Part shown: piece after piece, positions 5,538 through 61,267 of the stretch
How the letters are laid out: every line of letters begins with the position of its first letter
Position numbering within the stretch: position 1 is the first letter of the stretch
Assembly: GCA_964621395.1 (NCBI GenBank)
Contig: CAZULS010000001.1
Coordinates: 245,106 to 309,105 of the forward strand
From: an uncultured Candidatus Saccharibacteria bacterium
Lineage (GTDB): Bacteria > Patescibacteriota > Minisyncoccia > Phycocordibacterales > JACNGX01
Direction of reading: 5' to 3'
DNA length: 64,000 nucleotides
Program-made: the position numbers and the translations under genes
The notes under the pieces: generated by a model
Databases searched by the model: none
Told to the model about the DNA's origin: nothing
What the model saw: the letters and a program-made list of their open reading frames with translations, nothing else

Positions 5538-5636
5538 GTTGTGTTTGATAGAGTAAAGGAATATGAAAGCAAAAACGCGGCGACCAAAGGTCGCCACGTT
5601 TTTTTTGGGCAGTGTGCTCTCTAGAACAAATATGTT

Positions 5637-5712
5637 GTCATCCCGCACTTGATGCGGGATCTAAACGTTAAGAAACAATTCTCTCGAGATCCCGCATCAA
5701 GTGCGGGATGAC
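5637..5712. repeat. Hairpin-unit pair (gtcatcccgcacttgatgcgggatc ... gatcccgcatcaagtgcgggatgac), family 1 short form
   Basis: Two 25-nt palindromic units in inverted orientation, separated by 25 nt. The same unit recurs at more than 20 intergenic sites, for example 15504..15529, 15561..15586 and 61088..61220. Confidence 0.7.
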
Positions 5713-5800
5713 AAGATGTGTCTTTTTACCGTTAACTTTTTTTAATCTCCTAATATTTTAATTTTCTTTTTTGTTTGTTCTTCTTTTTTATTCTCCTACT

Positions 5801-10455: not shown

Positions 10456-10784
10456 GGTATTCTTTTTAGGGTTGTGCAAGACTGCTCTTTTTCTACCAAT
10501 TTTGAGATAAAAAAGCAAGGGGAGTGAACGAAGACTTACTCACTTTATTGTCATCCCGCACTTGATGCGGGATCTTCTCGAATAGTACAAAAAACTTTAG
10601 ATTCCCGTTCAAGCTGGGAATGACAGGGGAATAAATGATGTGCAACAAAGTCAGATTCGTATGTTCGTACACATTCGTACTTCGTACCCATTTCAGGAAA
10701 TAAGCCCTATAAGCTATCAGCTAAAAGCTACAAGCCAGATATGATATAATATCAGTGTTTTAATCATTACATTATTAAACCTGT

Positions 10785-11795: not shown

Positions 11796-11939
11796 AAATA
11801 CGAAAAACGAAATATGAAATATGTATAAGCGGCGCGGGGCTTTCGCCCCGCGCCGCTTTTCTTTTCGTACCTTCTTTCTTTGTCATTCCGGACTTGATCC
11901 GGAATCTTCGACAGGTTGTTTTCGAAGGCTGTTTGGGGA

Positions 11940-12070
11940 GATCCCGCATCACCAGAGCTCCACTTTCACCAATATCATTTGCAGTAAAACATCTTTTGTC
12001 CCCTCTCCTACCGTCTACGATTTCTTAATATATTCAGTGAAAGTCGAGCTCGGCAGGAGTGCGGGATGAC
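11940..12070. repeat. MITE-like element, family 1
   Basis: Same termini and core as 1748..1877. Preceded by a solo hairpin unit gtcattccggacttgatccggaatc (11882..11906). Confidence 0.7.
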
Positions 12071-12107
12071 ACCATATCTTTACTTATACAAAAAAGTATC
12101 GTAAGAT

Positions 12108-12284: not shown

Positions 12285-12336
12285 ATTCTGTCATTCTGAG
12301 CTCGACTCAGAATCTCCAATATATTTTTTCAGACTA

Positions 12337-12468
12337 GATTCCGCATCACCAGAGCCTCACTTTCACCAATATCATTTGCAGTAAAATATCTTTCATCCCT
12401 TCTCCTACCGTCTACGATATCTTAATGTGTTCAGTGAAAGTGAAGCTCGGCAGGAGTGCGGGATGACA
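12337..12468. repeat. MITE-like element, family 1
   Basis: gattccgcatcaccagagcctcactttcacc...gtgaaagtgaagctcggcaggagtgcgggatgaca. Confidence 0.7.
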
Positions 12469-15388: not shown

Positions 15389-15734
15389 GAGTCGTACCTT
15401 TTGCTTTGATTTTAGTTAATGTACTTTCCACAGCAAGCATAACACATGATTCGTTAGAATGAAACACGCACGGCACGGTAGATATGGGATATACAAATAA
15501 GCTGTCATTCCGGCCTGCGAGCCGGAATCTAGGATTGTGTCTCTGGTGGTGGTTTGCGAAGATCCCGCATCAAGTGCGGGATGACAGGAACCTTTTGTTT
15601 TTAGAAGAAGTGCGCGGCGCCGTAGGCGCCGCGCACTTCTCGCAACAGGGTGCTCACAACTCGAAACTCACAAAAATGACAATATAAGCTATTTCTGCTA
15701 TTCTTAATCCGTAATTCTTAATTCCCTTGGCCGT

Positions 15735-19102: not shown

Positions 19103-19313
19103 GAGGTCATCCTGTTTTTTCGGTTAAAAGGTGTTACGTCCTCTCCTTTTGTACCATAAACATGTGGAAAATCAAAATGTGGTATACTGTGTATAAGAGC
19201 TCTTCGGGTTTCTGGTACTGTATGATAAGATTCCGAATCAAGTCCGGAATGACACTCATTGGCTTTTAGGTATTTTTAATTTCCTAATCATTAACCTCCT
19301 AATCTCCTGTACT

Positions 19314-20354: not shown

Positions 20355-20487
20355 AAATTCCAAATAACAAAAAACAAATTTCAAATAATACCAAATATAC
20401 AAGGACTCCGAATATACAAATCATTACAAAAATACAAATGGTACAAATATGTACGAATATGAATTTGTGTTTAAAAATAAATTGTTT

Positions 20488-20619
20488 GTCATTCTGAACT
20501 CCTGCCGAGCTTCACTTTCACTGATTACAGAAGAAAACAATAGACGATAGAAGAAAGAACAGAAAGTATGTGGATGAAAAATGCTATTGGTGAAAGTGGG
20601 GCTCTGGTGATTCAGAATC
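20488..20619. repeat. MITE-like element, family 1 variant (gtcattctgaac...gattcagaatc termini)
   Basis: Part of a composite gap-rpiB spacer (20355..20764): tacaaat/tacgaa-rich stretch, this MITE, a solo hairpin unit (20634..20659), a TTCGTA x4 array, then the 5' module. An about 85% identical composite fills rpiB-rpe (21233..21598). Confidence 0.65.
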
Positions 20620-20764
20620 TAGGAGACGACGAAGATTCCGCATCAAGTGCGGAATGACAATGAAAGTGGATAATGTACTAAAAGTCAGATTCGTATGTTC
20701 GTACACGTTCGTAGTTCGTAACCTTTGTAATCTCCTAACATTTAATTTCCTAATCTCCTCAATT

Positions 20765-21232
20765 ATGCTTATTCACATCGCATCAGATCACGCAGGACTT
20801 GCGCTCAAAGAACATCTTCAGGGCGTGCTTGAGTCTCTCGGGCATGAGGTTGTTGATTATGGTCCGAACGAGTATGACAAAGACGATGACTATCCTGATT
20901 TTGTCCGTCCGGCGGCGGAAGCGGTGGGGGAGGCATATTGCTCAGGACAAACAGACGTGCGCGGTATTGTCATTGGCGGCTCCGGGCAAGGCGAAGCGGT
21001 TGTGGCTAATCGCGTGAAGGGTGTTCGTGCAGCAGTGTGGTATGGTGGCGATATGCACTTGGTTATGCTTTCTCGAGAGCATAATGATGCAAATGTTCTG
21101 TCGCTCGGAGCGCGATTCATGGATAAAGGGATTGCCGAAGAAGTGGTGAAGATGTGGCTTGATACACCGTTTTCCAATGACGAGCGCCATATTCGGAGGA
21201 TTAAAAAAATCGATAAAACGAATTACGAATAA
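20765..21232 (+). CDS. rpiB: Ribose-5-phosphate isomerase B
   Basis: Internal ATG MLIHIASDHAG (RpiB/LacAB family) of ORF 20654..21232. The upstream part of the track ORF is translated repeat sequence. Confidence 0.85.
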   Translation: MLIHIASDHAGLALKEHLQGVLESLGHEVVDYGPNEYDKDDDYPDFVRPAAEAVGEAYCSGQTDVRGIVIGGSGQGEAVVANRVKGVRAAVWYGGDMHLVMLSREHNDANVLSLGARFMDKGIAEEVVKMWLDTPFSNDERHIRRIKKIDKTNYE

Positions 21233-21598
21233 GTACGAATATACGAACGGTACAAATCTCTACAAATATGAATTTACGTTTAAAAGCTCATTATTTGTCA
21301 TTCTGAACTCCTGCCGAGCCCCACTTTCACTGGACACATCAAGAAATCATGAACGATAGAAGAAAAAATGAAAGATATGTTACTGCAAATGATATTGGTG
21401 AAAGTGGGGCTCTGGTGATTCAGAATCTAGAAAACGATGGAGATTCCGCATCACCAAGCACCATTTTCACTAAAGTGAAAAAAGTGCTCGGCACAGAGTG
21501 CGGAATGACAATGAAAGTGGATGATGTGCTAAAAGTCAGATTCGTATGTTCGTACTCATTCGTACTTCGTACCCGATACCATTCTTAATTCTCTTCTC

Positions 21599-22297
21599 AT
21601 GCTTGAAATTATCCCTGCCATTATTCCGGAAAGCGTAGAGGATCTCTCCGAAAAGCTTTCTCGTGTTGCCGGTCTTGCATCTGTTGTGCAAATTGATTTT
21701 GTCGATGGTGTGTTTGTGCCCGATGCCGCTCCTTCGTGGCCGTTTCATGACACAAAAGAAGAAGGGGTGTTCAGCACGCTCGGTACAGAGGAAGAAGGTT
21801 TGCCTTTCTGGGACACTTTTTTCTTTGAAGCTGACCTCATGGTAAAAGAGCCCGAGCATATCATCGACGATATTATCGGTGCCGGATTTTCTCGCGTTAT
21901 TCTCCATGCCGGGAGCTCCGGGAAGATTGCCGAAATCTTCGATACACTGCGATCGTATGACATTGAGACAGGTCTTGCTCTTTCTGTCGGCGACGATATA
22001 GAACAATATGCATCGCTTCTTGAAAAAGCGGATGTCATTCAAGTGATGGGCATTGAGCACATCGGCAGGCAAGGAGAAAGGCTGTCTCCGGACGCACTTC
22101 TTCTCTTATCCACTTTGCGGGGGCAGTATCCCGAGCGTATAATAAGTGTCGATGGAGGCGTGAATGTGGAGAACGCGCCCATTCTCGTTGGCGAGGGAGC
22201 CGACCGTCTTGTCTCAGGTTCCGCACTTTTCGGTAGTGATGATATTGCCGGAGTGCTGGCAAAATTTTATTCTCTGGAAGAACCTGTCTCAAGTTAA
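21599..22297 (+). CDS. rpe: Ribulose-phosphate 3-epimerase-like TIM-barrel protein
   Basis: 232 aa. QIDFVDGVFVP resembles the Rpe HLDVMDGHFVPN metal site. The last 19 nt including the stop lie inside a family-2 MITE. Confidence 0.6.
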   Translation: MLEIIPAIIPESVEDLSEKLSRVAGLASVVQIDFVDGVFVPDAAPSWPFHDTKEEGVFSTLGTEEEGLPFWDTFFFEADLMVKEPEHIIDDIIGAGFSRVILHAGSSGKIAEIFDTLRSYDIETGLALSVGDDIEQYASLLEKADVIQVMGIEHIGRQGERLSPDALLLLSTLRGQYPERIISVDGGVNVENAPILVGEGADRLVSGSALFGSDDIAGVLAKFYSLEEPVSS

Positions 22298-22473
22298 ATG
22301 GCTTATTCTCGTTCCGAGCATTCGAGCGAGTCGAAGTCTCGGAGACTGAAGCGTACTGTCTGTACGATGAAGTTGAGAGACAAGACGCAGCCGGATGCTC
22401 GGTGCGAGAATTGCCAAGCGCACACGAAGTGAGGTGAATATTATGTGGGCGTTTTAACGTGAGACAGGTTCTC
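22279..22473. repeat. MITE-like element, family 2 (about 195 nt)
   Basis: aagaacctgtctcaagttaaatggcttattctcg...gagaattgccaagcg...ttaacgtgagacaggttctcag. Copies at 29928..30125, 32835..32938 (short form), 36680..36877, 43062..43259 and 44526..44724. Confidence 0.7.
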
Positions 22474-23357: not shown

Positions 23358-23620
23358 CAATGAAATGCACAAATCACAAGCATCAAATAACAAATAATAC
23401 TCAAATTCGAAATATCAAAATCTATGAGTTGTCATTCCGGGCTTGACCCGGAATCCAGGAAACACACGAAGATTCCGGATCAAGTCCGGAATGACAATGA
23501 AAGTGGACAATGTGCCAAAAGCTAGATTCGTATGTCCGTACAAATTCGTAGTTCGTAACCTTTTATTCTCCTTATTTACTAACATACTTATCTCCTAACG
23601 TGTGATTTATAATTCTATAT

Positions 23621-29927: not shown

Positions 29928-30125
29928 TAGAACTCATCTCATGTTAAACCGCTGGAAACAACACTTTTCACTTCGTTCATATGCTTGGCAATTCTCGCAC
30001 CACATATTCGGCTGCACCTTGTCTCTCAACCGCACCGCACGAACAGTGCGGCACGGTCTCCGAGACATCGGCTCGCTCGAATATTCGGCACGAGAATAAG
30101 CCATTTAATATGAGATGAGTTCTAG
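29928..30125. repeat. MITE-like element, family 2, inserted between the pilN-like and pilO-like genes
   Basis: tagaactcatctcatgttaaa...ccatttaatatgagatgagttctag. Its terminal ATGAGTTCTAG supplies the ATG (30115) of the downstream gene. Confidence 0.7.
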
Positions 30126-36679: not shown

Positions 36680-36877
36680 CTAGAACCAGTCTCACTGAAA
36701 ATGGCTTGTTCTCACGCCCAAACAGCGAGCGAGCCGACGTCGCGGAGACCGTGCCGCACTGCCGTGCGGTGCGGTTGAGCGACAAGGCGCAGCCGCCACG
36801 TGGGCGTGGGAACTGCCAAGCGCAGCTCTTGAATATGTTTCCATTATTTTTCAATGTTTTCAGTGAGACTGGTTCTA
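36680..36877. repeat. MITE-like element, family 2
   Basis: ctagaaccagtctcactgaaaatggcttgttctcacgcc...gggaactgccaagcg...cagtgagactggttcta. It overlaps the 5' part of track ORF 36664 and contains the only in-frame ATG (36835) for the downstream pilin-like gene. Confidence 0.7.
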
Positions 36878-41437: not shown

Positions 41438-41487
41438 TTAAGATGTTGTCATTCCGGCCCCCGAGCCGGAATCCAAAAAATCACGAA

Positions 41488-41618
41488 GATTCCGCATCAC
41501 CAGAGCCCTACTTTCACCAGTATCATTTGCAGCAAAACATTTTTCATTCCTTCTTCTACCGTCTACGATTTCTTAATGTATCTAGTGAAAGTGAGGCTCG
41601 GCAAGAGTACGGAATGAC
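41488..41618. repeat. MITE-like element, family 1
   Basis: gattccgcatcaccagagccctactttcacc...agtgaaagtgaggctcggcaagagtacggaatgaca, followed by the TTCGTA array and the 5' module. Confidence 0.7.
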
Positions 41619-41724
41619 AATAGAAGTGGATAATGTACTAAAGGTCAGATTCGTATGTTCGTACCGATTCGTAGTTCGTAACCTTTTTATTCTCCTAACC
41701 TTTAATTTCCTAATCTCCTGATGT

Positions 41725-42330
41725 ATGGAAGGCCCCTTCATTGATCTTGAATACGTGTTTTACCAAATATATTCATTTGTATTTGGTATTCCTTCTGCAA
41801 CATCGACCGAAAACGCAACGTCCACGGGTCTATTATCGACTATCACCTCTTTTGACCCAAACCCGACATTTATCATTGCAAAAAATGTGATATCGCTTGT
41901 CATATTACTGCTGATTGCGGGCATTGTGTATGTGCTTGTGCGTCTCTGGGAAGTACAAAAAGAAGAAGAGGCGCAATTTGTCTTCGCTGAGCCTGAACAC
42001 GGACATGGAGAAATTAAGAACGAGCAATGGGAGCTCATTGAAGAGCACATCTCGTCAGAGAATACTTCGGATTGGCGTGTGGCAATCCTTGAGGCAGATA
42101 ATATGCTTGAAGACATGCTGGTGCGCATGGGCTACGACGGTGAGAGCATTGCCGATCGCTTGCGTGCGGTAGAACCAAGCGACTTTACTCATATCCAAAG
42201 TGCATGGGAGGCGCATAGAGTGCGTAATCAGATTGCGCATGAAGGAGTGAATTTTGTCGTTACTCAACGTGAAGCCCGCAGAGTGATTGAGCTGTATCGA
42301 AAAGTGTTTGAGGAATTCCACTATATTTAG
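41725..42330 (+). CDS. Hypothetical membrane-anchored protein with HEPN-like R-x4-H motif
   Basis: 201 aa; one TM (ISLVILLLIAGIVYVLV); C-terminal AWEAHRVRNQIAHEG. Confidence 0.35.
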   Translation: MEGPFIDLEYVFYQIYSFVFGIPSATSTENATSTGLLSTITSFDPNPTFIIAKNVISLVILLLIAGIVYVLVRLWEVQKEEEAQFVFAEPEHGHGEIKNEQWELIEEHISSENTSDWRVAILEADNMLEDMLVRMGYDGESIADRLRAVEPSDFTHIQSAWEAHRVRNQIAHEGVNFVVTQREARRVIELYRKVFEEFHYI

Positions 42331-42657
42331 GAACTAGAATAAAGAATGAAGAATTATGCCTAGCCCGTGCCGAGCCACGGTCGGCCTAGGGAATAAAGAA
42401 TAAAAGGTGCGGCTCACGCCGCACCTTTTATGTATCCCACTTGTCATTTCGTACCCAAACTCTGTCATTCCGGGCTTGACCCGGAATCTCAAAAACAATC
42501 CCACACCTCTCAACACTTCAGAAAATAAAAAAAGCCCGCGGCTTTTGCCAAGGCTCCGCGGGGCACTCGTGCGGCTTGCGTAATAAAAGAGGATATGGTA
42601 CTATCGTGTATACGAAGCCGAGAACGGCTTTTTCATTTGAAATATATGGTATTCCAT

Positions 42658-43040: not shown

Positions 43041-43061
43041 TACACCAAAAACCTGGTATGC

Positions 43062-43259
43062 TAGAACCCATCTCATATTAAATGGTGTATTCTCGCGCTC
43101 TCTCGCTGAGCGAGTCGATGTCGCGGAGACCGTGCCGCACTTTCGTGCGGTGCGGTTGAGCGACGAGACGCAGCCAGCGAGAGAGTGCGAGAATTGCCAA
43201 GCATGATACACAGAGTGTAGAAGTATTGTTTCTGGCGGTTTAATGTGAGATGGGTTCTG
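43062..43259. repeat. MITE-like element, family 2
   Basis: ctagaacccatctcatattaaatgg...gagaattgccaagc...taatgtgagatgggttctg; lies 8 nt before tRNA-Met. Confidence 0.7.
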
Positions 43260-44524: not shown

Positions 44525-44525
44525 T

Positions 44526-44724
44526 CAGAACTCATCTCACATTACATGGCTTGTTCTCGCGCCAAGGATTCGAGCGAGTCGCAGTCTCGGAGACCGAAGC
44601 GTACTATTGTACGATGAGGTTGAGAGGCAAGACGCAGCCGAATACTTGGCGCGAGAACTGCCAAGCGATTATGCGTAGCGTGAGAATATCACTACCTTAG
44701 CGGTGTAATGTGAGATGAGTTCTG
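44526..44724. repeat. MITE-like element, family 2
   Basis: Starts 2 nt after the rpmG stop and ends 16 nt before tRNA-Asp: cagaactcatctcacattacatggcttgttctcgcgcc...gcgcgagaactgccaagcg...taatgtgagatgagttctgg. Confidence 0.7.
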
Positions 44725-45520: not shown

Positions 45521-45748
45521 CAGAAAATCAAAAGACAAAAAACAATAGTCAAATACCAAATAAAAAGGAAATATCAAACACAAAAACACAAAAGCGGCGC
45601 GTAGCGTCGCTTTTTGATACACGGCATTATTTGTCATTCCCAGCTTGACTGGGAATCTTCGCTGTTTTGTTTTTAGAGGTTATTCGAGAAGATCCCGCAT
45701 CAAGTGCGGGATGACAGGATATGTGTGTTCCGTGCTATACTGTCCACT

Positions 45749-46645: not shown

Positions 46646-46910
46646 CGCCTTTCGTGTTCAGTATTGTCAAAAAAGCGAAGATCCCGCATCAAGTGCGGGA
46701 TGACAGGTACTTTTATTGTTTATTTTCCATTGTTTGTTCGTAGGCATTTTTTGCTTTTTTCGTTTTGGTGTATAATACTCTTACGAACGTACAAATTGTT
46801 ACATATCTACAAATGGTACGAATAATACAAATCCGTTTCTAACGCCAGGTGGTCATTTGTATTATTCGTACCATTTGTAAATTAGTATGTATTCGTAGAT
46901 TTGGAGTCTT

Positions 46911-50524: not shown

Positions 50525-50757
50525 AAGACCACCAGGTTTAACCTCGGGCTTGTCCCGAGGTTAAACCTTGGGAACGTGAAGCAATACATAAAACACAAGA
50601 GCGCGGAGACATGAAATGTCTCCGCGCCCTTGTGTTTTGTCCGTCATTCCACACATGATCCTAAACCGCAAGCGGTCGGATACAATGCGGGATTTCGTAA
50701 TACTGCACCACGCCACGCTGGAAAAACGCTATATTGTATGCTATTCTATGAAAACCT

Positions 50758-50831
50758 TGCCGGGTCATCTAGTGGTAGGATGCGAGTTTCTGGCACTCGT
50801 CACCGGGGTTCGAATCCCTGCCCGGCAGCCA
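50758..50831 (+). tRNA. tRNA-Gln (CTG)
   Basis: U1:A72 acceptor (tgccggg/cccggca) typical of bacterial tRNA-Gln, anticodon stem cgagt/actcg with loop uuCUGgc, T arm ccggg-gttcgaatcc-ctg, discriminator G, encoded CCA. Track ORF 50616..50837 overlapping it is spurious. Confidence 0.8.
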
Positions 50832-50881: not shown

Positions 50882-51586
50882 ATGACTAAAGAACAACACT
50901 TTCTTCCTGAACACGCACAAGGGCAATTTCATTGCCCACATTGCGGTGTTTATGCAAAACAGCGATGGTCGCACTTAAGTGCAGTGGGTGACGTGCATAC
51001 CACCAAATGGGGTGGCGGCTCTGTTAAGAATGCCTCAAGTATTCTCGGAACTACTCTTACTAACGGCAATCTCACAGATGATTGGTCCCTCTCTGTTTGC
51101 GAGCACTGTAATGGATTATCTATATGGCATAAACGTCGAATGATTTATCCAGAAAAGATTATTGTTGAGGAGCCCAATGCAGATTTGTCGGGAGAGATTC
51201 AAAAGGACTACCTGGAAGCCGCGAATGTACTTGCCAATTCACCACGCTCAGCAGCAGCGATTCTACGGCTTGCTCTCCAAAAACTTTGTAAACAGCTGGG
51301 CGAGAAAGGAGAAAACATAAACGATGATATTGGTGCACTTGTAAAGAAAGGGCTTAATCCTGCGATCCAAAAATCTCTCGATGCGCTTCGTATCACTGGG
51401 AATAACGCTGTTCATCCAGGGGAACTCGACATTACAGAAGAACCAGGGCGGGTCATTAAGCTTTTTGGTCTTCTGAATTTTATTGCAGAAAAAATGATTA
51501 CCGAACCGAAGGAAATTGACTCATTCTACGAAGGATTACCAGATGGTGCGAAACAAGCGGTAGAAAAGCGTGATCAAGACAAATAA
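50882..51586 (+). CDS. Zinc-ribbon + putative HEPN/DUF4145-like protein
   Basis: 234 aa; N-terminal Cys4 (CPHCG...CEHCNG); C-terminal alpha-helical region with AILRLALQKL and LRITGNNAVHPGE (R...GN..H). First gene 3' of tRNA-Gln. Confidence 0.35.
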   Translation: MTKEQHFLPEHAQGQFHCPHCGVYAKQRWSHLSAVGDVHTTKWGGGSVKNASSILGTTLTNGNLTDDWSLSVCEHCNGLSIWHKRRMIYPEKIIVEEPNADLSGEIQKDYLEAANVLANSPRSAAAILRLALQKLCKQLGEKGENINDDIGALVKKGLNPAIQKSLDALRITGNNAVHPGELDITEEPGRVIKLFGLLNFIAEKMITEPKEIDSFYEGLPDGAKQAVEKRDQDK

Positions 51587-51695
51587 CGGATCCCAACTTT
51601 TTACTGGTTTAAAGTAAAAGAAGTAGAGAAAGAAATAATCAAAATGAAACAAAGTCTCATTTTGAGCGAAAAATATATGGCACTAGATTTTTTGT

Positions 51696-52076
51696 ATGAA
51701 AATAAGAAAAGAAAACATATTAATTCGAGCGATAGGGTTTCTACTTTCTCTTGTTTGGTTTGGTATAAGTTTTATCAAAATGTTATTTTCAATGCTTAAG
51801 GAAAAAATACAAAAAAGAAAGAAAATGACACTAGAAGAGACTGATGAGTTTTTAAATAAAGAAATAAAACGTGTCATTAAACATCTCGTCGAATCTTTTG
51901 AAAGAGGCGAAGTGGATGAAGATCAGCTTCTTGGTGAGCGCAGGATCGTCATTGCTATTGTCTTCGACAGGGAAAGATTGCTCCCTGACGGTTTTACCAA
52001 AGAAGAAGCAATGGAAAGATTGACACCTTCGTGGCGTGAGGAAGTGAGGTATCACTACAGGCTTCGCCATAAATAA
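51696..52076 (+). CDS. Small membrane protein (126 aa)
   Basis: N-terminal TM (AIGFLLSLVWFGISFIKMLF), charged C-terminus. Its stop lies 2 nt before the Nudix start. Confidence 0.3.
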   Translation: MKIRKENILIRAIGFLLSLVWFGISFIKMLFSMLKEKIQKRKKMTLEETDEFLNKEIKRVIKHLVESFERGEVDEDQLLGERRIVIAIVFDRERLLPDGFTKEEAMERLTPSWREEVRYHYRLRHK

Positions 52077-52078
52077 CT

Positions 52079-52663
52079 ATGGACATCCAAAAACCAAAAT
52101 CAGCACAGCCAATTCCTGAACACGCCAAGTGTGTGTTTAAGGGCGTGATGTTTGACGTGTATCAATGGGAGCAGGAATTATATAACGGAACAACGACGAC
52201 GTTTGAGAAATTGAAGCGTGCTGATACGGTGATGGTGTATCCAGTACTTCCCGATGGCAAAATTCTTTTAGCCGAACAAGAACAGCCCGGTAAAGAACCC
52301 TTTATAAGTGCTGCGGGTGGTCGTGTTGACGAGGGGGAAGAAGTGTTTGACGCGGCGAAGCGTGAACTTTTGGAGGAGACGGGATATGAGGCAGATGAAT
52401 GGACTCTTTGGAAAGCAGTACAGCCGGGAAGTAAAATTGATTGGGCGGTCTATTCTTTCATTGCTAAGGGACTACGGAAGGTTGCTGATTTGAATCTCGA
52501 TGGTGGCGAGAAGATTACTCCCAAGCCGGTGACATTCGAAGAGTTTCTTGAGATGGGCACGAATGACCGGTTCGGTGAAAAGGAAATTGTTCCCGAACTT
52601 CTCCTGGCGAAAATTGATTCGGAAAAAGAGAGGGAAATAAGAGCATTATTTTCCGCAGATTAA
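52079..52663 (+). CDS. Nudix hydrolase
   Basis: Nudix box GGRVDEGEEVFDAAKRELLEETG (G-x5-E-x7-REUxEExGU). Confidence 0.7.
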   Translation: MDIQKPKSAQPIPEHAKCVFKGVMFDVYQWEQELYNGTTTTFEKLKRADTVMVYPVLPDGKILLAEQEQPGKEPFISAAGGRVDEGEEVFDAAKRELLEETGYEADEWTLWKAVQPGSKIDWAVYSFIAKGLRKVADLNLDGGEKITPKPVTFEEFLEMGTNDRFGEKEIVPELLLAKIDSEKEREIRALFSAD

Positions 52664-52698
52664 GGTCTCACCTTAATCTAATCCTTAATCAAGATTTG

Positions 52699-52740
52699 AA
52701 GCGTATCAAACGCTTGCTTTTATCGTATCACAATGATACG
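52699..52740 (+). promoter_or_regulatory. Two palindromic operator-like sites sharing CGTATCA half-sites
   Basis: aagcgtatcaaacgctt (52699-52717) and cgtatcacaatgatacg (52724-52740), about 100 nt 5' of the AbiEi-like gene. Confidence 0.45.
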
Positions 52741-52838
52741 AAAAATGACCTGAGATGATACGATATTTCTTGCTTTTGAGGGGAAACGGGTTGTTGTTTG
52801 ACACTGTATTTCACATATGATACACTATTGTCATACTT

Positions 52839-53456
52839 ATGAAAAGCAAAGAAAATTTGTTATATCAGTTGAATCTCTTGCCTCATTTTACCAAAGACAC
52901 GGTATATCGTCTTGGAGAGCAGTTGGGGCTTCGGAAAAGCACGGTTGACACATATATCAGCCGGTTTTTGAAGCGCAAGGAAATAATACGATTGAAAAAA
53001 GGATTGTACATATCGTCGGTGTTTTATTCGACACATGTAAGCGATATGTCGTATCTGTTTTGTCTTGCCAATATTCTCCGAACGCCTTCATATGTAAGTT
53101 CATGGACAGCGCTTCAGTATTATAATCTTACAACCGAAGTGATACACCCGATTATATCAACAACGACAAAAGTGACACGGACGCAGGAAACGAAGGTGGG
53201 GACGTTTTCGTATCAGTCAATTCGGAACGATCTTTTTTCAGATTATGTGCGTGTGAACGGGGCATTTGATTTTTTCATTGCGACACCGTCGAAGGCATTG
53301 TTCGATCTCTTGTACTTCAGGACACGGCAATTTCGCGGCGTGAACCGCGGGGATATTGATCGCATAGTTGAAGAACTGCGGATTGATATTGACGAAATAA
53401 ACGATACCGAGCGAAGCAAGTTTTACACGTATATCAAAGAATACATTCATGAGTAA
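52839..53456 (+). CDS. AbiEi-like antitoxin (type IV TA / abortive infection, N-terminal wHTH)
   Basis: 205 aa. 8-nt overlap with the downstream NTase-fold gene. Size and architecture match the AbiEi_4-type partner of AbiEii; family assignment is from motif memory only. Confidence 0.45.
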   Translation: MKSKENLLYQLNLLPHFTKDTVYRLGEQLGLRKSTVDTYISRFLKRKEIIRLKKGLYISSVFYSTHVSDMSYLFCLANILRTPSYVSSWTALQYYNLTTEVIHPIISTTTKVTRTQETKVGTFSYQSIRNDLFSDYVRVNGAFDFFIATPSKALFDLLYFRTRQFRGVNRGDIDRIVEELRIDIDEINDTERSKFYTYIKEYIHE

Positions 53457-54732
53457 TCATATTATTGCCATGCTGAAAAAACGAATCGAGGAGCTTGATA
53501 TGTATGACACACTGGATGCCGAGACTCGTCGCAATGTGCTCAAAGAAGAGCTGCAGTTTTACGTGCTTGATTTCATCTATCATCATCCCGAATATCATAG
53601 ATGGATTATGTACGGCGGTTCCGCATTGCGTATTCTGCACGGATTGAATCGCATGTCGGTGGATTTGGATTTTGAAGTGTCGCGCGCGGTAACGAATGAT
53701 TTTTTGCAGACACTTAAGAATGAGATTGAAACTCACTTCTCACAGACGTACGGGACCGATACTGATTTTCTCACAGCCAAGGTCGTTGGTGGCAGAGGGC
53801 TGAAACTCAAGTTTCATATTGGTGAAATGCTCGGTATTGACCACCCTTCGAAACAGGTTCATGTAAAGATTGACCTCAATCGCTTTGTCGCGCCAAAAAC
53901 GGTGACCGAACGAATACCGGTGTCTCGCAATCAGCTTTCTTTTGTGATTCTGACGTACAATATGTCGGCGCTTATGGCAAGTAAAATCGCCGCCATTGTA
54001 TTGCGCGGTGCACGCATAGTCGGCAAAAACGTGTATGAAGAGAAAGGGAGAGATATATACGACCTTCTGTGGTATATGGAGAAAAAAATTGTACCCGATT
54101 TTGATTATTTGGTTGCCAAAGAGATTGATATTCGCAACCTTCGTGCGCTTTTTGACACGCTGACGCTTCGTATGAACACGGTAAGCACGGAGAATCTCAA
54201 GCAGGATCTTACTCCTTTGTTTGAGCATAAAACATTTATCGATAATTGGATGACGCATTGGCTGGAACAGTATTTTCATCTTCTTGAAGAATATCATATT
54301 CGGACGGTAACCGATGTGAAGCGTATAGGAGTATACCGGGATTTCTCGTCCGATAATTTCTACTTTACGTATACCTATGATACAGAGGAAAAAGATCCGA
54401 TACGAGTGATATACGCGATGAGCGATTATTGGATTGACTTTGCGCCTCATGCACTGCCGAATGATGTTGATGAAAAGATAGCATCACTGATTGGGTTTGG
54501 TGGCAACGGCATGACAAGCCATCCTTCTTCTGAGGAAATGATAAAGAAGTATACAACGTTGTTTTTTAAGAAGACGGAAGAGTATTTTAAGAAAACACAT
54601 AACGTAGTGGTGGGAGATATGCTGGAGACGAAACTGATACGCATGACGGCGGACAATCTCAATCGCAATACAGAGATTGTTCTTACGATGCCGACGCTTT
54701 TGTCATGCGAACTCGATGATTTGTTGAAGTAG
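53449..54732 (+). CDS. AbiEii/AbiGii-family nucleotidyltransferase toxin-like protein (DUF1814-like)
   Basis: 427 aa; N-terminal NTase signature YGGSALRILHGLNRMSVDLDFEV (GG[ST]-x9-R-x-S-x-D-x-D); long C-terminal extension. Confidence 0.55.
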   Translation: MSNHIIAMLKKRIEELDMYDTLDAETRRNVLKEELQFYVLDFIYHHPEYHRWIMYGGSALRILHGLNRMSVDLDFEVSRAVTNDFLQTLKNEIETHFSQTYGTDTDFLTAKVVGGRGLKLKFHIGEMLGIDHPSKQVHVKIDLNRFVAPKTVTERIPVSRNQLSFVILTYNMSALMASKIAAIVLRGARIVGKNVYEEKGRDIYDLLWYMEKKIVPDFDYLVAKEIDIRNLRALFDTLTLRMNTVSTENLKQDLTPLFEHKTFIDNWMTHWLEQYFHLLEEYHIRTVTDVKRIGVYRDFSSDNFYFTYTYDTEEKDPIRVIYAMSDYWIDFAPHALPNDVDEKIASLIGFGGNGMTSHPSSEEMIKKYTTLFFKKTEEYFKKTHNVVVGDMLETKLIRMTADNLNRNTEIVLTMPTLLSCELDDLLK

Positions 54733-54741
54733 TTATCATCT

Positions 54742-56910
54742 ATGAGTACGCTCTCAAAACAGGAACGGATTGATCTTTTTAGAGATTTGTTTCGCGGTCG
54801 GGAGGATGTGTTTGCGCGGCGATGGGAGAAATACGGCGGAGGAGTAAGCGGGTACGCGCCGGTGTACATGGACTGGCGGAAGAAGGAGGCATATGTACCA
54901 CTTTCGGATGCGCACATCGAGCGACATTTGACCGGCAACGCTACGCTCGGCGTGTACGCGCTTATTGAAGACAACACCTCGCGTTTTCTTGTCGTTGATT
55001 TCGACGGTGACGGATGGCGGAGCGACGCGCGGAAGTTTTGTGATGTGTGTGCCCCGCGAGGAGTGCCGGTATATGTGGAGCAGTCGCGGTCGGGGAACGG
55101 CGCGCATGTATGGTGCTTTTTCTCCGAGCCGGTTCAGGCGTATATGAGCCGCGCCGTCTTTTTCCGGCTGCTGCGTGAGGCGCGGCACATTGGTGAGTAT
55201 GAAAGGGATGATAGTTTTGACCGGCTGTTCCCCAATCAGGATTATCTTTCGGGAAAAGGGCTGGGGAATTTGATTGCGCTTCCCTTGCAGGGGAAGTCGC
55301 GCAAGGAAGGAAATACGGTGTTTGTGAATCCCGACGATGATTTTGCCGTGTATCCCGATCAGTGGGAGTTTTTGACGAATGTGAAGCGTGTGTCGCGCGG
55401 CGAGATGGAATTGCTGTACGCGGATGGTGTCGCGGATAGCGAATACGGTTCTGGAAAGGGCGATGCAAGGAGGAAGGGGAGGCGCGCGCAGCTTCGCGGC
55501 GCGCGCAATCCGTCCGCCATTCACATCACGCTCGCGCACGACCTCACGATTCCGAAAAAAGATGTTCCTCCAACAATTGCCGCGTATCTGCGCGACGAGC
55601 TGAATTTTTTCAACGCACAGTACGCGATCAAACAGCGCATGGGATTCAGTCCGCACGGCGTGGAAAAATATATCCGCGCCGTCTACGACGATGACACACA
55701 TGTGCATATTCCGCGCGGGTGGTTATCAAACGTTAAAGAGAAATGCGCCGAAGAAGGGTTGGCGGTCGATATCTCGGATATGCGATCTGACGGCGCGCGT
55801 GTCGCGTACACGCCGAGCATTACGCTTCGTCCGTACCAGAAAAAAGCGGTTGACACACTCACTGCAGAAGGAGGTGGCGTGCTTGTTGCGCCGCCCGGCG
55901 CGGGAAAAACGATTATCGGCATCATGGCTGCGGCGAAACTGAAACGCTCCGTGCTTATTCTTACGCATCGCGCGCAAATCTTTAATCAGTGGATCGACGC
56001 GGCGGAATCTTTCCTGGGTATGCCAAAGAAAGACATCGGTCGGTATTCGGGAGCGGAAAAACGCGAAGGAAAAGGATATGTCACCGTTGCCATGGTGCAG
56101 ACAATCGCGCGGATGTCCGATGAAGATACGCGGGTGCTTCGCGACAGATTCGGCATGGTGATATTGGACGAATGCCATCATGTACCGGCGCGTATGTTTC
56201 GCGATTGTGTCGCGCGTTTCAATCCGCGGTATCTCTACGGGCTCACGGCAACGCCAAAGCGCATGGGCAACGACGAAAAACTCATCACCGCGTATCTCGG
56301 GGATACGGCGCATGTGGTTGAGCCGGCGGACATGTGCGGAAATGCGGAAGGAAAAAGCGGGAACGCACAAACACTCGATATCGCAGTACGCGAGACGAAA
56401 CTATCGCTGCCGTTTTCGCCAAAAGCGACCGACATGCCGACGCTTGGGCGTATTGTCTCTCACGACGCCGAGCGGAACGCGCTAATTTCTGCAGACGTGA
56501 GAAAAGAAGTCGAGAAAGGGAATGCGTGTCTTGTTCTCACCGAGCGGAAAGAGCATGCCGATGTGCTGGCATGGTACTTGAGACGCCACGCGGACACAGC
56601 GCTCTTTACCGGAGACCTTTCGGGACGAAAACGGCGGGATACCGAAGCGCGGATAAAGAAGGGGGATTTCGACGTGATTGTGGCAACTGGACACATGCTC
56701 GGCGAAGGAGCCGATATCCCCGCTCTTTCACGACTCTTTCTCGCGTTCCCGTTTTCATTCGAGGGTAAGCTGATTCAATACCTCGGCCGTGTCGGACGAA
56801 ACGATTTGCCCTCGCGCGTCTACGACTACCGCGACAGCAACATTCCGCTTTTGGAAAAGAAATTCACCGCGCGTCGCAGACGGTACCGAAAAATGACAGA
56901 TGCTATATAA
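54742..56910 (+). CDS. Archaeo-eukaryotic primase (AEP/PrimPol)-like domain fused to SF2 DEXH-box helicase
   Basis: 722 aa. N-terminal AEP motifs: FLVVDFDGDG (motif I, DxD), SGNGAHVWCFF (motif II, sGxGxH), DRLFPNQD (motif III candidate). C-terminal helicase: LRPYQ (Q motif), APPGAGKT (I), ILDECHH (II), GLTATP (III), QYLGRVGR (VI). GC-rich (about 58-60%). Confidence 0.6.
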   Translation: MSTLSKQERIDLFRDLFRGREDVFARRWEKYGGGVSGYAPVYMDWRKKEAYVPLSDAHIERHLTGNATLGVYALIEDNTSRFLVVDFDGDGWRSDARKFCDVCAPRGVPVYVEQSRSGNGAHVWCFFSEPVQAYMSRAVFFRLLREARHIGEYERDDSFDRLFPNQDYLSGKGLGNLIALPLQGKSRKEGNTVFVNPDDDFAVYPDQWEFLTNVKRVSRGEMELLYADGVADSEYGSGKGDARRKGRRAQLRGARNPSAIHITLAHDLTIPKKDVPPTIAAYLRDELNFFNAQYAIKQRMGFSPHGVEKYIRAVYDDDTHVHIPRGWLSNVKEKCAEEGLAVDISDMRSDGARVAYTPSITLRPYQKKAVDTLTAEGGGVLVAPPGAGKTIIGIMAAAKLKRSVLILTHRAQIFNQWIDAAESFLGMPKKDIGRYSGAEKREGKGYVTVAMVQTIARMSDEDTRVLRDRFGMVILDECHHVPARMFRDCVARFNPRYLYGLTATPKRMGNDEKLITAYLGDTAHVVEPADMCGNAEGKSGNAQTLDIAVRETKLSLPFSPKATDMPTLGRIVSHDAERNALISADVRKEVEKGNACLVLTERKEHADVLAWYLRRHADTALFTGDLSGRKRRDTEARIKKGDFDVIVATGHMLGEGADIPALSRLFLAFPFSFEGKLIQYLGRVGRNDLPSRVYDYRDSNIPLLEKKFTARRRRYRKMTDAI

Positions 56911-56919
56911 TGGACATGT

Positions 56920-57459
56920 ATGATTGCGTTTGAAACACATGCGGGGAAGGAGATTAATCTTGATGCCGTGGAAGCGGTGATGCTCGGGAAACATGCCGAG
57001 CCGCGCTTTTTGGACGTGGTGACGGGGCGGGTTGAGAGTGAGCCGAGTGTGACGCGCATGGAGATTCCGGTGATATCCAAGGAGCGATTTGAAAAAGAAA
57101 TGCGGTCGTTTATTGATATGATGGCGGTATGGGAGAATGATGAATCCGATGCGTGTATAATTGAGAAACTAACAGCGCTTCTTTCAGGAAAAGAGGTGTA
57201 TGATAAGGCGATGCAGATACTTCAAACGGACGAAGCATGGATGATTGGCTGGCGCGAATGGATTTCCACAAGCGTGTGGGAAGAAATGCGCGCGTGGCTG
57301 CTTTCCGCCGATAACGGTATCGTTGAGGTTGCAACATTCAATTGCTCATGCGCGCTCTGTCACGACATGGCGCAAGGCATGAAAGGCAATGAACGTATTC
57401 GTGTGGATTGGAATTTGGATAATATGAATGAGGATGGAAATGATAAGCTAGAAAAATGA
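56920..57459 (+). CDS. Hypothetical protein (179 aa) coupled to the AEP-helicase gene
   Basis: Starts 10 nt after the helicase stop; same GC-rich composition. Acidic, with a Cys cluster CSCALCH near the C-terminus. No known family recognised. Confidence 0.35.
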   Translation: MIAFETHAGKEINLDAVEAVMLGKHAEPRFLDVVTGRVESEPSVTRMEIPVISKERFEKEMRSFIDMMAVWENDESDACIIEKLTALLSGKEVYDKAMQILQTDEAWMIGWREWISTSVWEEMRAWLLSADNGIVEVATFNCSCALCHDMAQGMKGNERIRVDWNLDNMNEDGNDKLEK

Positions 57460-57506: not shown

Positions 57507-58721
57507 ATGATTAGCTTCTTAGCCGAGCGGCGGGCACTTATGTCGCTGTATGGTGGACGAGTATTCCTTTCCATGGCGGAGACCATGGTGGGGATTTTTC
57601 TTGCCATTTTCATTTTTGAGCTCTTCGGACGGCAGCTCTGGCCTGTTTTCGCGTATTATCTTTTTCGTCATCTTGCCTATGGTCTTCTTGTGCCACTCGG
57701 CGGCATTATCCTTGATCGTATCGGCTCACGCGTGCCGCTTGTCTTGGGAGTATGTTCATCGGCTGCGTTTATCACCTCGCTCTATGGTGTTACAACAAGT
57801 GAAGGGACAACACAGCTTCTCTTCCTCGGAGCAGCACTTATCTTTACCGTCACCTTTCGTGTGTTTTTCTGGACACCATTTCATGTGGATGTGGCGACAC
57901 ATACAAATCGTGCCGTGCGCGGAAAAGAAACCGGTGTGCTTCTTGCGGCCCTTACTGTCGTGTCGGCAACAGCGCCGGCAATCGGTGGCTTCCTCATTTC
58001 CTCGTATGGGTATGCCATGTTGTTTATCGTTGCGGTATTTGTGAGCCTTGCAGCAATTATTCCTTTTATCTCCGTGCCCAAGCGCGACGAAACATTCTCT
58101 TGGGGATATGGAGAGACGTTTCGTCGTGTCTTGGCTCCCGAGAGCAGACGCCTTGTTGTCTCAAGCATGCTCCTTGGCGCTGAAAACATTATTGGTGTTC
58201 TCATCTGGCCGCTCTTTATCTTCTTGCTGCTCGACGGACAGTATTTGGATGTTGGTATTATTTCATCGCTCATCGTGATTGGTACGGCGATGTTTCAGCT
58301 TGTTGTCGGCGACAGATTAGACAAGCATGCCAAGGCGGATGTGATGCGCGGGTGGACACCGTTTACAGCAGTTGCCTGGGTGCTTAAAATTTTTGTGGCA
58401 ACGGCATTTCAGATTTTTATTGTTGGCGCATATCACAGTATTGTGCGCTCGTTTCGAAGCGTATCATATGAGGCGTTTTTCTATGAGCTTGCCGCCGACG
58501 GTGGACAGTATGTCGATGAGTATACGGTTGTGCGTGAAATGGCCATTCAGTTTTCAAAAGTAATCACCGTTGCAATCATTGCTCCCATCGCCTTTTTCTT
58601 TGGCTTACAGTGGACTTTTCTCATCGGATTCATCACATCAATCCTTCTGAACATGTTTTTGAAGCATGATACTGAGGAGGAGATGCAGGAGAAGGCGCGG
58701 GAGGTAAATATTAGAAATTAG
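57507..58721 (+). CDS. Multi-pass membrane transporter (MFS-like)
   Basis: 404 aa, about 12 predicted TM segments. A TATACT box lies 8 nt 5' of the ATG. Confidence 0.45.
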   Translation: MISFLAERRALMSLYGGRVFLSMAETMVGIFLAIFIFELFGRQLWPVFAYYLFRHLAYGLLVPLGGIILDRIGSRVPLVLGVCSSAAFITSLYGVTTSEGTTQLLFLGAALIFTVTFRVFFWTPFHVDVATHTNRAVRGKETGVLLAALTVVSATAPAIGGFLISSYGYAMLFIVAVFVSLAAIIPFISVPKRDETFSWGYGETFRRVLAPESRRLVVSSMLLGAENIIGVLIWPLFIFLLLDGQYLDVGIISSLIVIGTAMFQLVVGDRLDKHAKADVMRGWTPFTAVAWVLKIFVATAFQIFIVGAYHSIVRSFRSVSYEAFFYELAADGGQYVDEYTVVREMAIQFSKVITVAIIAPIAFFFGLQWTFLIGFITSILLNMFLKHDTEEEMQEKAREVNIRN

Positions 58722-58794: not shown

Positions 58795-59217
58795 GTGAAT
58801 CTCTATATGAATATGAATTCCTCAAACATAATTGTTATCCTAGCGTTACTTCTTGGAGTGTCCGTCTATTTTAATGTGCAAGGATCCAAGAAAAAGGATT
58901 TAATTTTTGAGAACAACTTGAGATGCGCACAATATATTGAGCAGGAGAATGAAGAAGCGGACAGAATCGCAGACTTGCCTATTAATCAGACAAGAATAGT
59001 GTCTGTTCCCAAAGTATTTTATAGTCCCGTATTGAATACATGTGTTAGTGCTCTTAGGATTGATGATTTTAGAGAAGGTTTCAGTAGTTATTATGTTATT
59101 AAGGATCTGTTGATTAACGAGTCCATTTTGGAGGTAAATGGACTCAGAAATGAAATATCCGGTCAAATTGCATCGGACCAGTATCATGCAAAACTGGAGG
59201 AGTTAAGCGGCCGATAG
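58795..59217 (+). CDS. Hypothetical signal-anchored protein (140 aa)
   Basis: N-terminal hydrophobic segment IIVILALLLGVSVYF; very AT-rich. Confidence 0.3.
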   Translation: MNLYMNMNSSNIIVILALLLGVSVYFNVQGSKKKDLIFENNLRCAQYIEQENEEADRIADLPINQTRIVSVPKVFYSPVLNTCVSALRIDDFREGFSSYYVIKDLLINESILEVNGLRNEISGQIASDQYHAKLEELSGR

Positions 59218-59261: not shown

Positions 59262-59822
59262 ATGGTACTGAAGAAACTATCAAGAATCGTTGACGAAATA
59301 CTTCCGCGCTCTGAATTTTTGGAGATGCATGGTTATCATATCGAGTCTTTTTATCTCTTGGCCGCAATATTAGAAATAGAAATAGAACGCCTGCTCTCTC
59401 TATATGAACAAAATGTTTCTTTTTTTGTTGAGAAAGGAGAAAGCGAAAGTGATTTTAGTTTTGATGTAGAGTCTTTTAAGAAAAGGTATCTAAGGAATAA
59501 GATGACGATTGGACAATCTATTGAATACATGTCATTTTTCTGTAAAGACGACAAGATTCTAAAAGAATTACAATATTTTAACGACTTACGACGGAAGTGT
59601 GTTCACGGACTTTTTGACGAGAAAAATAATTTATCAGAATTGGACATTCTTGTTTCTGGAGACCAGGAAAGATTTTTTAAATTATTGGAAGATATAGATA
59701 AGTTACAAGGTGAGTTAATTGATTCGCTGATGGAGAAGTGTGAATGTATGAGAGGAAGGGAAGAAAAAGAGTGTCTCAGTAAACTGTATGACTTTGATTT
59801 TCTTCGAGACAACAAAGAGTAA
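59262..59822 (+). CDS. Hypothetical acidic protein with R-x4-H (possible HEPN-like) motif
   Basis: 186 aa; NDLRRKCVHGLF; AT-rich. Confidence 0.25.
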   Translation: MVLKKLSRIVDEILPRSEFLEMHGYHIESFYLLAAILEIEIERLLSLYEQNVSFFVEKGESESDFSFDVESFKKRYLRNKMTIGQSIEYMSFFCKDDKILKELQYFNDLRRKCVHGLFDEKNNLSELDILVSGDQERFFKLLEDIDKLQGELIDSLMEKCECMRGREEKECLSKLYDFDFLRDNKE

Positions 59823-61075: not shown

Positions 61076-61087
61076 ACCTTTTTCTCC

Positions 61088-61220
61088 GTCATCCCGCACT
61101 TGATGCGGGATCTCCAATATATTTTCACTAAAAACTGTTTGAAAACCAAAGTTGAGCTTTGATATGAATACCAAAGCTCAACTTTGGTTTTCTGGATCCC
61201 GCATCAAGTGCGGGATGACA
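61088..61220. repeat. Hairpin-unit pair element (family 1 short form) with an internal 16-bp hairpin
   Basis: gtcatcccgcacttgatgcgggatc ... accaaagttgagctttg-N14-caaagctcaactttggt ... ggatcccgcatcaagtgcgggatgaca. Confidence 0.65.
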
Positions 61221-61267
61221 AGTGGAAAATAATTGACAGTAAACTGAGAAAAATAAAAACCCCGTCA

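Follow-up and report, generated by a model that had tools for sequence, protein, structure and literature searches.

The insertion sequence (IS)-excision enhancer IEE of Escherichia coli O157:H7 is a protein in which an archaeo-eukaryotic primase (AEP) domain is joined to a superfamily 2 (SF2) ATPase. Within the Prim-Pol clade, its AEP domain has been assigned to the 'Z1568-like family' (PMC9943667), which the introduction of PMC5862659 places among 13 classical AEP families. IEE has been shown to be a Mn-dependent, error-prone DNA polymerase that tolerates dislocations of both primer and template, and it joins 3' overhangs sharing at least 4 bp of microhomology (microhomology-mediated end joining, MMEJ), a reaction for which both domains are needed (PMC9943667). 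Its SF2 half hydrolyses ATP in a DNA-dependent manner, has no duplex-unwinding activity and appears to hold on to the double-stranded portion of the substrate (PMC9943667). In vivo, IEE stimulates the transposase-dependent excision of copy-out-paste-in ISs, and one proposal has the enzyme changing strands while copy-out takes place (10.1101/2023.06.07.543989). Here we describe an IEE-like fusion gene at positions 54742..56910 of a 64,000-nt stretch of contig CAZULS010000001.1 (positions 245,106 to 309,105, the whole of which is termed the window below) from an uncultured bacterium of the candidate phyla radiation (CPR). Sequence comparison places its 722-aa product in the already described IEE/Z1568-like AEP-SF2 family (PF22548). 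The main value of the analysis is corrective: what had appeared in a first-pass annotation to be a novel and undescribed 'AEP-SF2 defence module' has a curated AEP domain and the architecture of E. coli O157 IEE, and so falls into a large family with a biochemically characterised member. The window protein is a new, divergent member from the CPR clade, and the partner gene that had been proposed for it is coincidental.

Other described systems also bring Prim-Pol domains into the context of accessory DNA. The TOTE conflict system, from which PF22548 takes its name and whose letters stand for TPR, OB, TBP and Effector, is credited to Aravind, Iyer and Burroughs (2022) in bioRxiv 10.1101/2025.09.15.676423. 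Roles in MMEJ, translesion synthesis or defence have been reported for AgaPP, a Prim-Pol associated with prokaryotic Argonaute (pAgo), and for the Thermus Ppol-Hel pair (PMC11724360; PMC7693054).

Domain architecture of the fusion protein

Two open reading frames (ORFs) had been reported, the fusion gene and a 179-aa ORF that starts after a 9-nt gap, and both were recovered in place, as was each of the three AEP motifs quoted for the N-terminal part of the fusion protein. The fusion gene and its parts are as follows.

54742..56910, + strand: IEE-like fusion gene, an intact ORF of 722 aa (Prim-Pol AEP and XPB-like SF2 ATPase)
54763..55410, + strand: AEP (Prim-Pol) catalytic domain, residues 8-223 (PF22548, PADLOC PrimPol, PDB CAPP, Foldseek)
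54997-55005, + strand: AEP motif I, DFD (DFDGDG is residues 86-91)
55084-55113, + strand: AEP motif II, SRSGNGAHVW, residues 115-124
55216-55242, + strand: AEP motif III, FDRLFPNQD, residues 159-167
55411..55515, + strand: basic, variable, low-confidence linker, residues 224-258 (model confidence and alignment)
55516..55779, + strand: small conserved alpha/beta domain, residues 259-346 (model confidence, alignment, Foldseek, phage helicase matches)
55807..56841, + strand: SF2 ATPase core of XPB/Rad25-UvsW type, residues 356-700 (Pfam, NCBIfam, PDB, Foldseek)
55891-55911, + strand: Walker A, PPGAGKT, residues 384-390 (GKT is 388-390)
56167-56181, + strand: DECHH, residues 476-480
56245-56256, + strand: TATP, residues 502-505
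56776-56799, + strand: motif VI, QYLGRVGR, residues 679-686

The protein consists of a Prim-Pol AEP whose catalytic residues are all present, a basic and flexible linker, a small domain and an XPB/Rad25-like ATPase, and it is collinear with IEE. The Pfam family PF22548 ('AEP-TOTE') matches residues 8-223 with E=2.1e-75 and 253.7 bits, against a cut-off of 27, and the match covers positions 1-228 of the 230 in the model; the PADLOC model for CRISPR-associated 'PrimPol' matches the same domain at 9e-68. The identity of the AEP domain is far beyond chance. In the C-terminal half, Pfam finds ResIII at residues 360-507 (1.5e-27) and Helicase_C at 589-687 (1.8e-10), and the NCBIfam XPB model gives 5e-29 and 101 bits, a score under that model's cut-off of 610. 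When a profile of 33 homologues was searched against the Protein Data Bank (PDB), the matches included the Prim-Pol domain of CAPP (7nqd, 2.7e-25), XPB/Rad25 (XPBII, 1e-30) and UvsW (1e-18). The catalytic set of D86/D88, H122, D160/D167, K389, DECHH at 476-480 and R683 is complete, and across the 33-homologue alignment D86/D88, D160, K389, DECHH and R683 are invariant, with H122 nearly so. The AEP and SF2 motifs listed above are likewise invariant or almost so in these homologues.

An AlphaFold model built on the same alignment has a mean predicted local distance difference test score (pLDDT) of 81.8. Using Foldseek, this model aligned with XPB over ~490-500 columns (E=1e-21) and with the CAPP Prim-Pol domain at a target-normalised template modelling (TM) score of 0.81-0.83 and 28-31% identity. 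The first-pass annotation had staked its claim on the N-terminus modelling as an AEP fold, and in this respect its own test came out in its favour; likewise, Pfam, the PDB profile and Foldseek agree with it on a complete SF2 helicase core of XPB/UvsW type bearing QYLGRVGR. Its '120-aa linker' fared less well, since only ~35 residues are of low confidence and these are followed by a folded, conserved domain at ~259-346. Within the linker, pLDDT falls below 50 at residues 231-256, and the basic stretch GKGDARRKGRRAQLRGARN (residues 238-256) is unconserved and gapped across the homologues. In the small domain that follows, pLDDT is mostly 85-94, dropping to 67-74 at residues 291-310, the LREELNF...PRGF motifs are conserved in the alignment, and the matches of phage helicases to the fusion protein start at residue 276. 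In the predicted structure this domain precedes the ATPase core, a position taken in XPB by the N-terminal domain, and it may be equivalent to the XPB damage-recognition domain.

Relationship to IEE and extent of the family

The gene for IEE in E. coli O157:H7 Sakai, ECs_1305 (Z1568), is annotated 'IS-excision enhancer IEE'. By BLASTP, residues 1-718 of the window protein align with IEE 42-773 at 33% identity (E=9e-116), and PF22548 matches IEE itself at 1.7e-98 and 329 bits. The lysine of GKT and the Q..GR of motif VI in the window protein align with the matching motifs of IEE, in which K451 and R735 have been placed (PMC9943667). The two proteins are collinear: a Prim-Pol AEP at the N-terminus is followed by a middle domain and, at the C-terminus, by an SF2 ATPase, with the same catalytic residues in each. 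Both are encoded in horizontally acquired islands. The window protein differs in its length, which is less by 64 aa, in lacking the N-terminal 41 residues and a four-cysteine insertion of IEE, and in falling in a separate clade of the tree, in a CPR host with no IS visible in the window.

The family is large, with at least 7,978 protein clusters at E<1e-10. The best matches to the window protein are full-length (~700-730 aa) and 43-55% identical to it, and many of the top relatives come from the CPR lineages Candidatus Pacebacteria, Kaiserbacteria, Uhrbacteria and Moranbacteria. Full-length relatives at ~34% identity were found on 98 plasmids, and cultured phage genomes match the helicase half only, the fusion being present in none of them. 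When 131 sequences were arranged in a neighbour-joining tree, the window protein fell within an environmental/CPR clade, apart from an IEE-proper clade that comprises E. coli IEE, a Pantoea plasmid copy, a Gemmobacter copy and a 966-aa group from gut-derived viral contigs. The zinc-ribbon-like insertion (C-x8-C-x9-C-x2-C, IEE residues ~84-104) is also found in one sub-branch of the environmental clade (P0072, P0083, P0086 and others), and it may bear on the capacity for de novo priming.

Longer variants of the architecture were seen in both parts of the tree. Around 12 members of the environmental/CPR clade are ~1,000 aa long and carry a 288-aa C-terminal extension that lacks a Pfam match (L051, L053, L058, L067, L068 and L071, with further examples at L081, L082, L085, L087 and L090); at locus L064 a homologue of this extension is encoded by a separate gene directly downstream. 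Amongst the IEE-proper sequences, a branch of 964-1017 aa (loci L092-L109, IMG/VR contigs, many with human-gut-type sample identifiers) shows a weak phospholipase D-like match at its C-terminus (PLDc_2, E=1.6e-4, under the curated cut-off). Upstream of these genes lie two conserved genes, one for a DUF3307 protein and one for a protein of 237 aa whose helix-turn-helix (HTH) resembles sigma-70 region 4, and Bacteroidetes-type tyrosine integrases are found nearby. This branch probably resides on integrative elements rather than true phages.

Comparison with other described systems

The window protein shares with TOTE a near-complete AEP-TOTE effector domain and a genomic setting of biological conflict, and it differs in that genes for TPR-OB (cold-shock) and TBP proteins are not adjacent to it. 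Indeed, a Pfam scan of the five genes upstream and four downstream found no TPR or CSD domain, and the unannotated neighbours gave no match to TBP even at E up to 10. The closest solved structure to its AEP domain is that of CAPP (PDB 7NQD/7NQE/7P9J), although the window protein scores 109.6 bits with the NCBIfam CAPP model NF040561, whose cut-off is 200, neither cas genes nor a CRISPR array were seen in the vicinity of the fusion gene, and the solved CAPP construct is without a fused XPB-like ATPase. For residues ~260-720 the best sequence and structure matches are XPB/Rad25 (archaeal XPB-Bax1 and the XPB of TFIIH) and T4 UvsW; here the differences are the fusion to a polymerase and the lack of a Bax1-like nuclease partner. 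AgaPP and the Ppol-Hel of Thermus ICETh2 resemble the window protein in pairing a Prim-Pol with a helicase on accessory DNA, whilst they belong to other AEP families and their helicases are separate proteins, that of AgaPP being a PriCT-DUF3987 5'-3' helicase and not an XPB-like SF2 ATPase.

A tRNA-Gln-adjacent defence island

The fusion gene has defence genes for neighbours and no genes for replication or structural proteins close by, which is as the first-pass annotation had described it. The AbiEi/AbiEii pair, the Nudix gene and a DUF4145 gene homologous to PD-T7-4 were all confirmed by Pfam and PADLOC, the last of these probably being the 'HEPN-like gene' of that annotation. The features around the fusion gene are listed below.

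50758..50831, + strand: tRNA-Gln(CTG), left edge of the island (ARAGORN and Rfam)
50882-51586, + strand: PD-T7-4/DUF4145 gene, 234 aa (PADLOC PD-T7-4, 5e-82)
50882..54732, + strand: span of the island genes from PD-T7-4/DUF4145 to AbiEii, with a 126-aa ORF between the PD-T7-4/DUF4145 and Nudix genes
52079-52663, + strand: Nudix gene (Pfam NUDIX, 1e-13)
52839-53456, + strand: AbiEi (PADLOC, 2e-34)
53449-54732, + strand: AbiEii, 427 aa (PADLOC, 1e-31)
56920..57459, + strand: 179-aa ORF of a small family, a neighbouring gene with no annotated domain
57507-58721: major facilitator superfamily (MFS) transporter gene on the right-hand side of the island, following the 179-aa ORF

The accessory status of the fusion gene is indicated by its GC content (0.552, with 0.609 at third codon positions, GC3, against 0.465 for the window) and by its absence from the same island in relatives. 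The product of the upstream CTP synthase gene (pyrG) clusters at 90% identity with proteins that bear the name 'Parcubacteria group bacterium', and relatives whose CTP synthase is in this cluster carry different gene sets downstream of pyrG, among which an IEE-like gene is absent: at L001 pyrG is followed by an IS1595 transposase, PGA_cap, PRiA4_ORF3 and a homologue of the 179-aa protein, at L172 by acetyltransferases and at L174 by a Cas1 gene. Because these close relatives carry other genes after pyrG, the site is hypervariable and the IEE-like gene accessory. Around the island only short, chance-level matches were found to att-like or iteron-like repeats, and a scan for promoters and terminators gave nothing decisive; the 9-nt gap between the fusion gene and the 179-aa ORF holds no terminator-like site.

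Some features of the neighbouring genes may be recorded here. PD-T7-4 is a single-gene defence system, of which the 234-aa protein in the window is a strong homologue. AbiEii is unusually long, with the Pfam domain at residues 45-242 followed by a C-terminal extension of ~180 aa without annotation, and its start overlaps AbiEi by 8 nt.

The downstream 179-aa gene

The 179-aa ORF is an unrelated neighbour and not a partner of the fusion protein. It gave zero matches in Pfam, PADLOC or NCBIfam, and relatives are few: three in an index of 5.8 billion clusters, and a family of 26 representatives in an exhaustive HMMER search of 1.84 billion proteins. An IEE-like gene was found by tblastn in none of the eight other loci that hold relatives of the 179-aa protein, and conversely tblastn and hmmsearch showed no member of the 179-aa family in any of the 167 loci that encode a relative of the fusion protein or of the helicase half alone. 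The first-pass annotation had proposed a coupled pair and had suggested its co-occurrence across genomes as a check; the check, now run, reveals no conserved two-gene cassette, and the two families never co-occur outside this genome. The anomalously high GC that the pair was said to share holds for the fusion gene and not for the 179-aa gene, which at 0.481 (GC3 0.528) is host-like, the pyrG and MFS genes of the host having 0.492 and 0.485. The gap between AbiEii and the fusion gene is also 9 nt, and the close spacing of the fusion gene and the 179-aa ORF therefore reflects a compact genome rather than coupling.

Elsewhere, members of the 179-aa family keep different company. At L001/L002 (short duplicate) and L176 they are preceded by a PRiA4_ORF3 gene and a ~165-aa gene, which may be the real conserved context of the family; at L003 a Fic gene precedes the 181-aa homologue, at L177-179 the preceding gene encodes a protein with a SEC-C-like motif, and at L180 the family member lies between NikA-like and PPDK_N genes. 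The L003 Fic protein is only ~27% identical to the Fic proteins encoded ahead of IEE-like genes (see below), so that there is no hidden three-gene cassette. A 195-aa gene downstream of a 50%-identical homologue of the fusion protein (L006) was considered as a counterpart of the 179-aa gene and proved to be unrelated. Members of the 179-aa family share a W-rich helix that is invariant, and the motif F-x-C-S-C-x-L-C-H-D-M-A is conserved among them. An AlphaFold model of the 179-aa protein from three sequences, mostly helical at low confidence, has a pLDDT of 46 and is unusable.

Gene neighbourhoods of relatives

The neighbourhoods of relatives of the fusion protein were surveyed at 94 loci on metagenome and viral contigs, with up to four genes per side clustered; a scan of genome contigs with the window protein as the single query gave one locus. 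A Pfam scan of 93 same-strand, closely spaced neighbours at 76 loci listed 25 families, of which the following are defence- or toxin-type genes.

Fic: 15 of 93 operonic neighbours, the most frequent
SLFN_AlbA_2 / HATPase_c_4: 8 of 93
Eco57I / N6_Mtase: 6 of 93
AbiEii: 5 of 93
RhuM: 3 of 93
HipA: 2 of 93

RecQ- or PIF1-type helicases with HTH_40 were also among the operonic neighbours, and type IIG methyltransferases, integrases and IS elements were found around relatives, whilst TPR, cold-shock and TBP families were absent from the 25 listed. A Fic gene (~350 aa, with a winged HTH-like C-terminal tail) lies directly upstream on the same strand, at a gap of -4 to +38 nt, at no fewer than 12 loci (L008, L009, L013, L017, L052, L054, L060, L062, L066, L074, L080 and L089), which include the closest relatives of the window protein. 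Fic and the IEE-like gene may form a conserved cassette, of which no description was found. The window copy is without an upstream Fic, the position being occupied by AbiEii. A conserved module of AbiE with the IEE-like gene was considered and rejected: the AbiE pair in the window belongs to another subfamily than the AbiE genes near other copies, and the adjacency looks like co-location in an island. On plasmids, relatives have as neighbours resolvases, three tyrosine recombinases together or groups of IS elements.

Proposed mechanism and alternative explanations

We consider it probable that this is a horizontally acquired, intact IEE/Z1568-like AEP-SF2 gene, situated beside tRNA-Gln in a hypervariable island of defence and accessory genes in a Parcubacteria-group (CPR) genome, and that its product acts in an IEE-like manner. 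By homology with IEE, the ATPase half would bind a primer-template or a DNA end at its double-stranded portion, would probably translocate there without classical unwinding, and would thereby position the AEP domain. XPB is a double-stranded DNA translocase, and an XPB-like fold therefore fits an IEE ATPase that does not unwind. The AEP domain would in turn extend 3' ends in an error-prone manner and switch template, or join ends, at short microhomologies, and the expected result would be that replicative intermediates of mobile or invading DNA are aborted or resolved. In E. coli such intermediates are those of IS copy-out, the outcome being excision of the IS (10.1101/2023.06.07.543989). The window protein would then be a translocase-tethered, template-switching, end-joining polymerase. 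IEE-like enzymes could be general anti-mobile-DNA factors. A number of observations weigh against such a role. IEE, the sole characterised member, is just 33% identical and stands in a different clade of the neighbour-joining tree, for which reasons the transfer of function from IEE is uncertain. The four-cysteine insertion is absent from the window protein, where its place would be at residues ~43-50 (nt ~54868-54891), and from its nearest relatives. A panel of 18 proteins detected no transposase or integrase in the 64-kb window, so there is no obvious local IS substrate. The family is abundant in CPR/Patescibacteria, located in hypervariable defence islands and often Fic-coupled, and no IS was seen in this window.

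One alternative is that the protein is a stand-alone anti-phage or anti-plasmid defence effector, of TOTE type but without TPR-OB and TBP, which synthesises or rearranges nucleic acid on sensing invader DNA. The XPB-like translocase would load the Prim-Pol onto the invader, where aberrant priming or template switching would abort replication, the window copy acting alone. The domain owes its Pfam name to a predicted conflict system, the gene shares its island with PD-T7-4 and AbiE, defence- and toxin-type genes dominate the operonic neighbours at the 76 related loci, and no IS element was seen in the window; furthermore, a primase-polymerase beside a putative helicase on a Thermus mobile element is reported to be involved in defence against environmental DNA (PMC7693054). 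Yet the literature searched yielded no experimental phage-defence phenotype for the family, PADLOC has no dedicated model (its matches being the generic CRISPR-associated 'PrimPol' and partial helicase models of other systems), and TPR-OB and TBP are missing both locally and from the families listed for the neighbours of relatives. Location alone is weak evidence, because defence islands also collect genes related to mobile elements. We regard this explanation as unlikely, and give no greater credence to its extension to the environmental/CPR clade as a whole, by which that clade, translationally coupled to an upstream Fic gene at no fewer than 12 loci and mostly without the four-cysteine insertion, would be a distinct anti-phage/anti-plasmid effector and not an IS-excision factor. 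That the protein is a primase-helicase initiating replication of a plasmid remnant or of a minimal integrative element is very improbable, and may be taken as already weakly refuted. AEP-helicase pairings are typical of the replication modules of mobile elements (PMC5862659), full-length relatives occur on the 98 plasmids, and the gene combines foreign GC with a tRNA-adjacent location, but the helicase is XPB-like SF2 and not of the hexameric SF3, DnaB or MCM type, neither a PriCT (Pfam) nor a zinc-binding domain was found, and the surroundings of the gene lack iterons and att repeats as well as genes for an integrase or for partition. In addition, one plasmid inspected has a separate RepA, with the homologue beside recombinases, and two others have it beside recombinases or IS elements; cultured phage genomes carry the helicase half without the fusion; and IEE lacks unwinding activity.

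The idea of a two-gene module, with the 179-aa protein as an obligate sensor, inhibitor or adaptor, draws on the shared strand and on the 9-nt gap free of any terminator-like site. As a conserved entity it is refuted: the eight other loci of the 26-representative family lack an IEE-like gene, none of the 167 loci of fusion or helicase-half relatives holds a member of the 179-aa family, the GC contents diverge (0.481 against 0.552), AbiEii stands at the same distance from the fusion gene, and at L001/L002 and L176 the family follows PRiA4_ORF3 and ~165-aa genes instead. Even for this single locus it is exceedingly improbable, and we would say the same of housekeeping DNA repair, whether akin to MMEJ or non-homologous end joining or acting as gap repriming, for a reduced CPR genome. 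Whilst IEE performs MMEJ (PMC9943667), the pAgo-associated PrimPol is described as performing MMEJ and translesion synthesis (PMC11724360) and XPB-like ATPases act in repair, the gene is absent at the same locus in close relatives, its GC is atypical, and its distribution is patchy and its location island-like.

Further features of the window

Unannotated ORFs of low GC (0.34-0.37, against 0.465 for the window) flank the island genes at 51696-52076, 58795-59217 and 59262-59822, and these three small ORFs may be additional insertions of foreign DNA. Two strong hairpins, at 50534-50568 and 50590-50638, with arms of 15 nt and 23 nt, lie after the end of pyrG and before tRNA-Gln and are probably the pyrG terminator region.

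Repeats are dispersed across the window. A hairpin of ~26 nt, TGTCATCCCGCACTTGATGCGGGATCT and its variants, recurs at 13 or more sites and looks like a repetitive extragenic palindromic (REP) or terminator-like element. There are also two families of 120-170 nt, found in both orientations at 62-93% identity. The positions are given below.

5625-5724, 10549-10625, 11874-11919, 12287-12327, 15535-15589, 19203-19257: TGTCATCCCGCACTTGATGCGGGATCT-type hairpin sites
20608-20662, 23430-23503, 42461-42501, 45630-45719, 46654-46708, 61085-61223: further TGTCATCCCGCACTTGATGCGGGATCT-type hairpin sites
1746-1878, 11939-12071, 12336-12468, 20415-20767, 21224-21618, 23483-23604, 41487-41727: 120-170-nt repeats, one family
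22279-22419, 29983-30123, 36680-36821, 43061-43202, 44525-44666: 120-170-nt repeats, the other family

The 120-170-nt repeats could be miniature inverted-repeat transposable element (MITE)-like elements or repeated regulatory modules and, if they are MITEs, they would be a conceivable class of substrate for an IEE-like enzyme.

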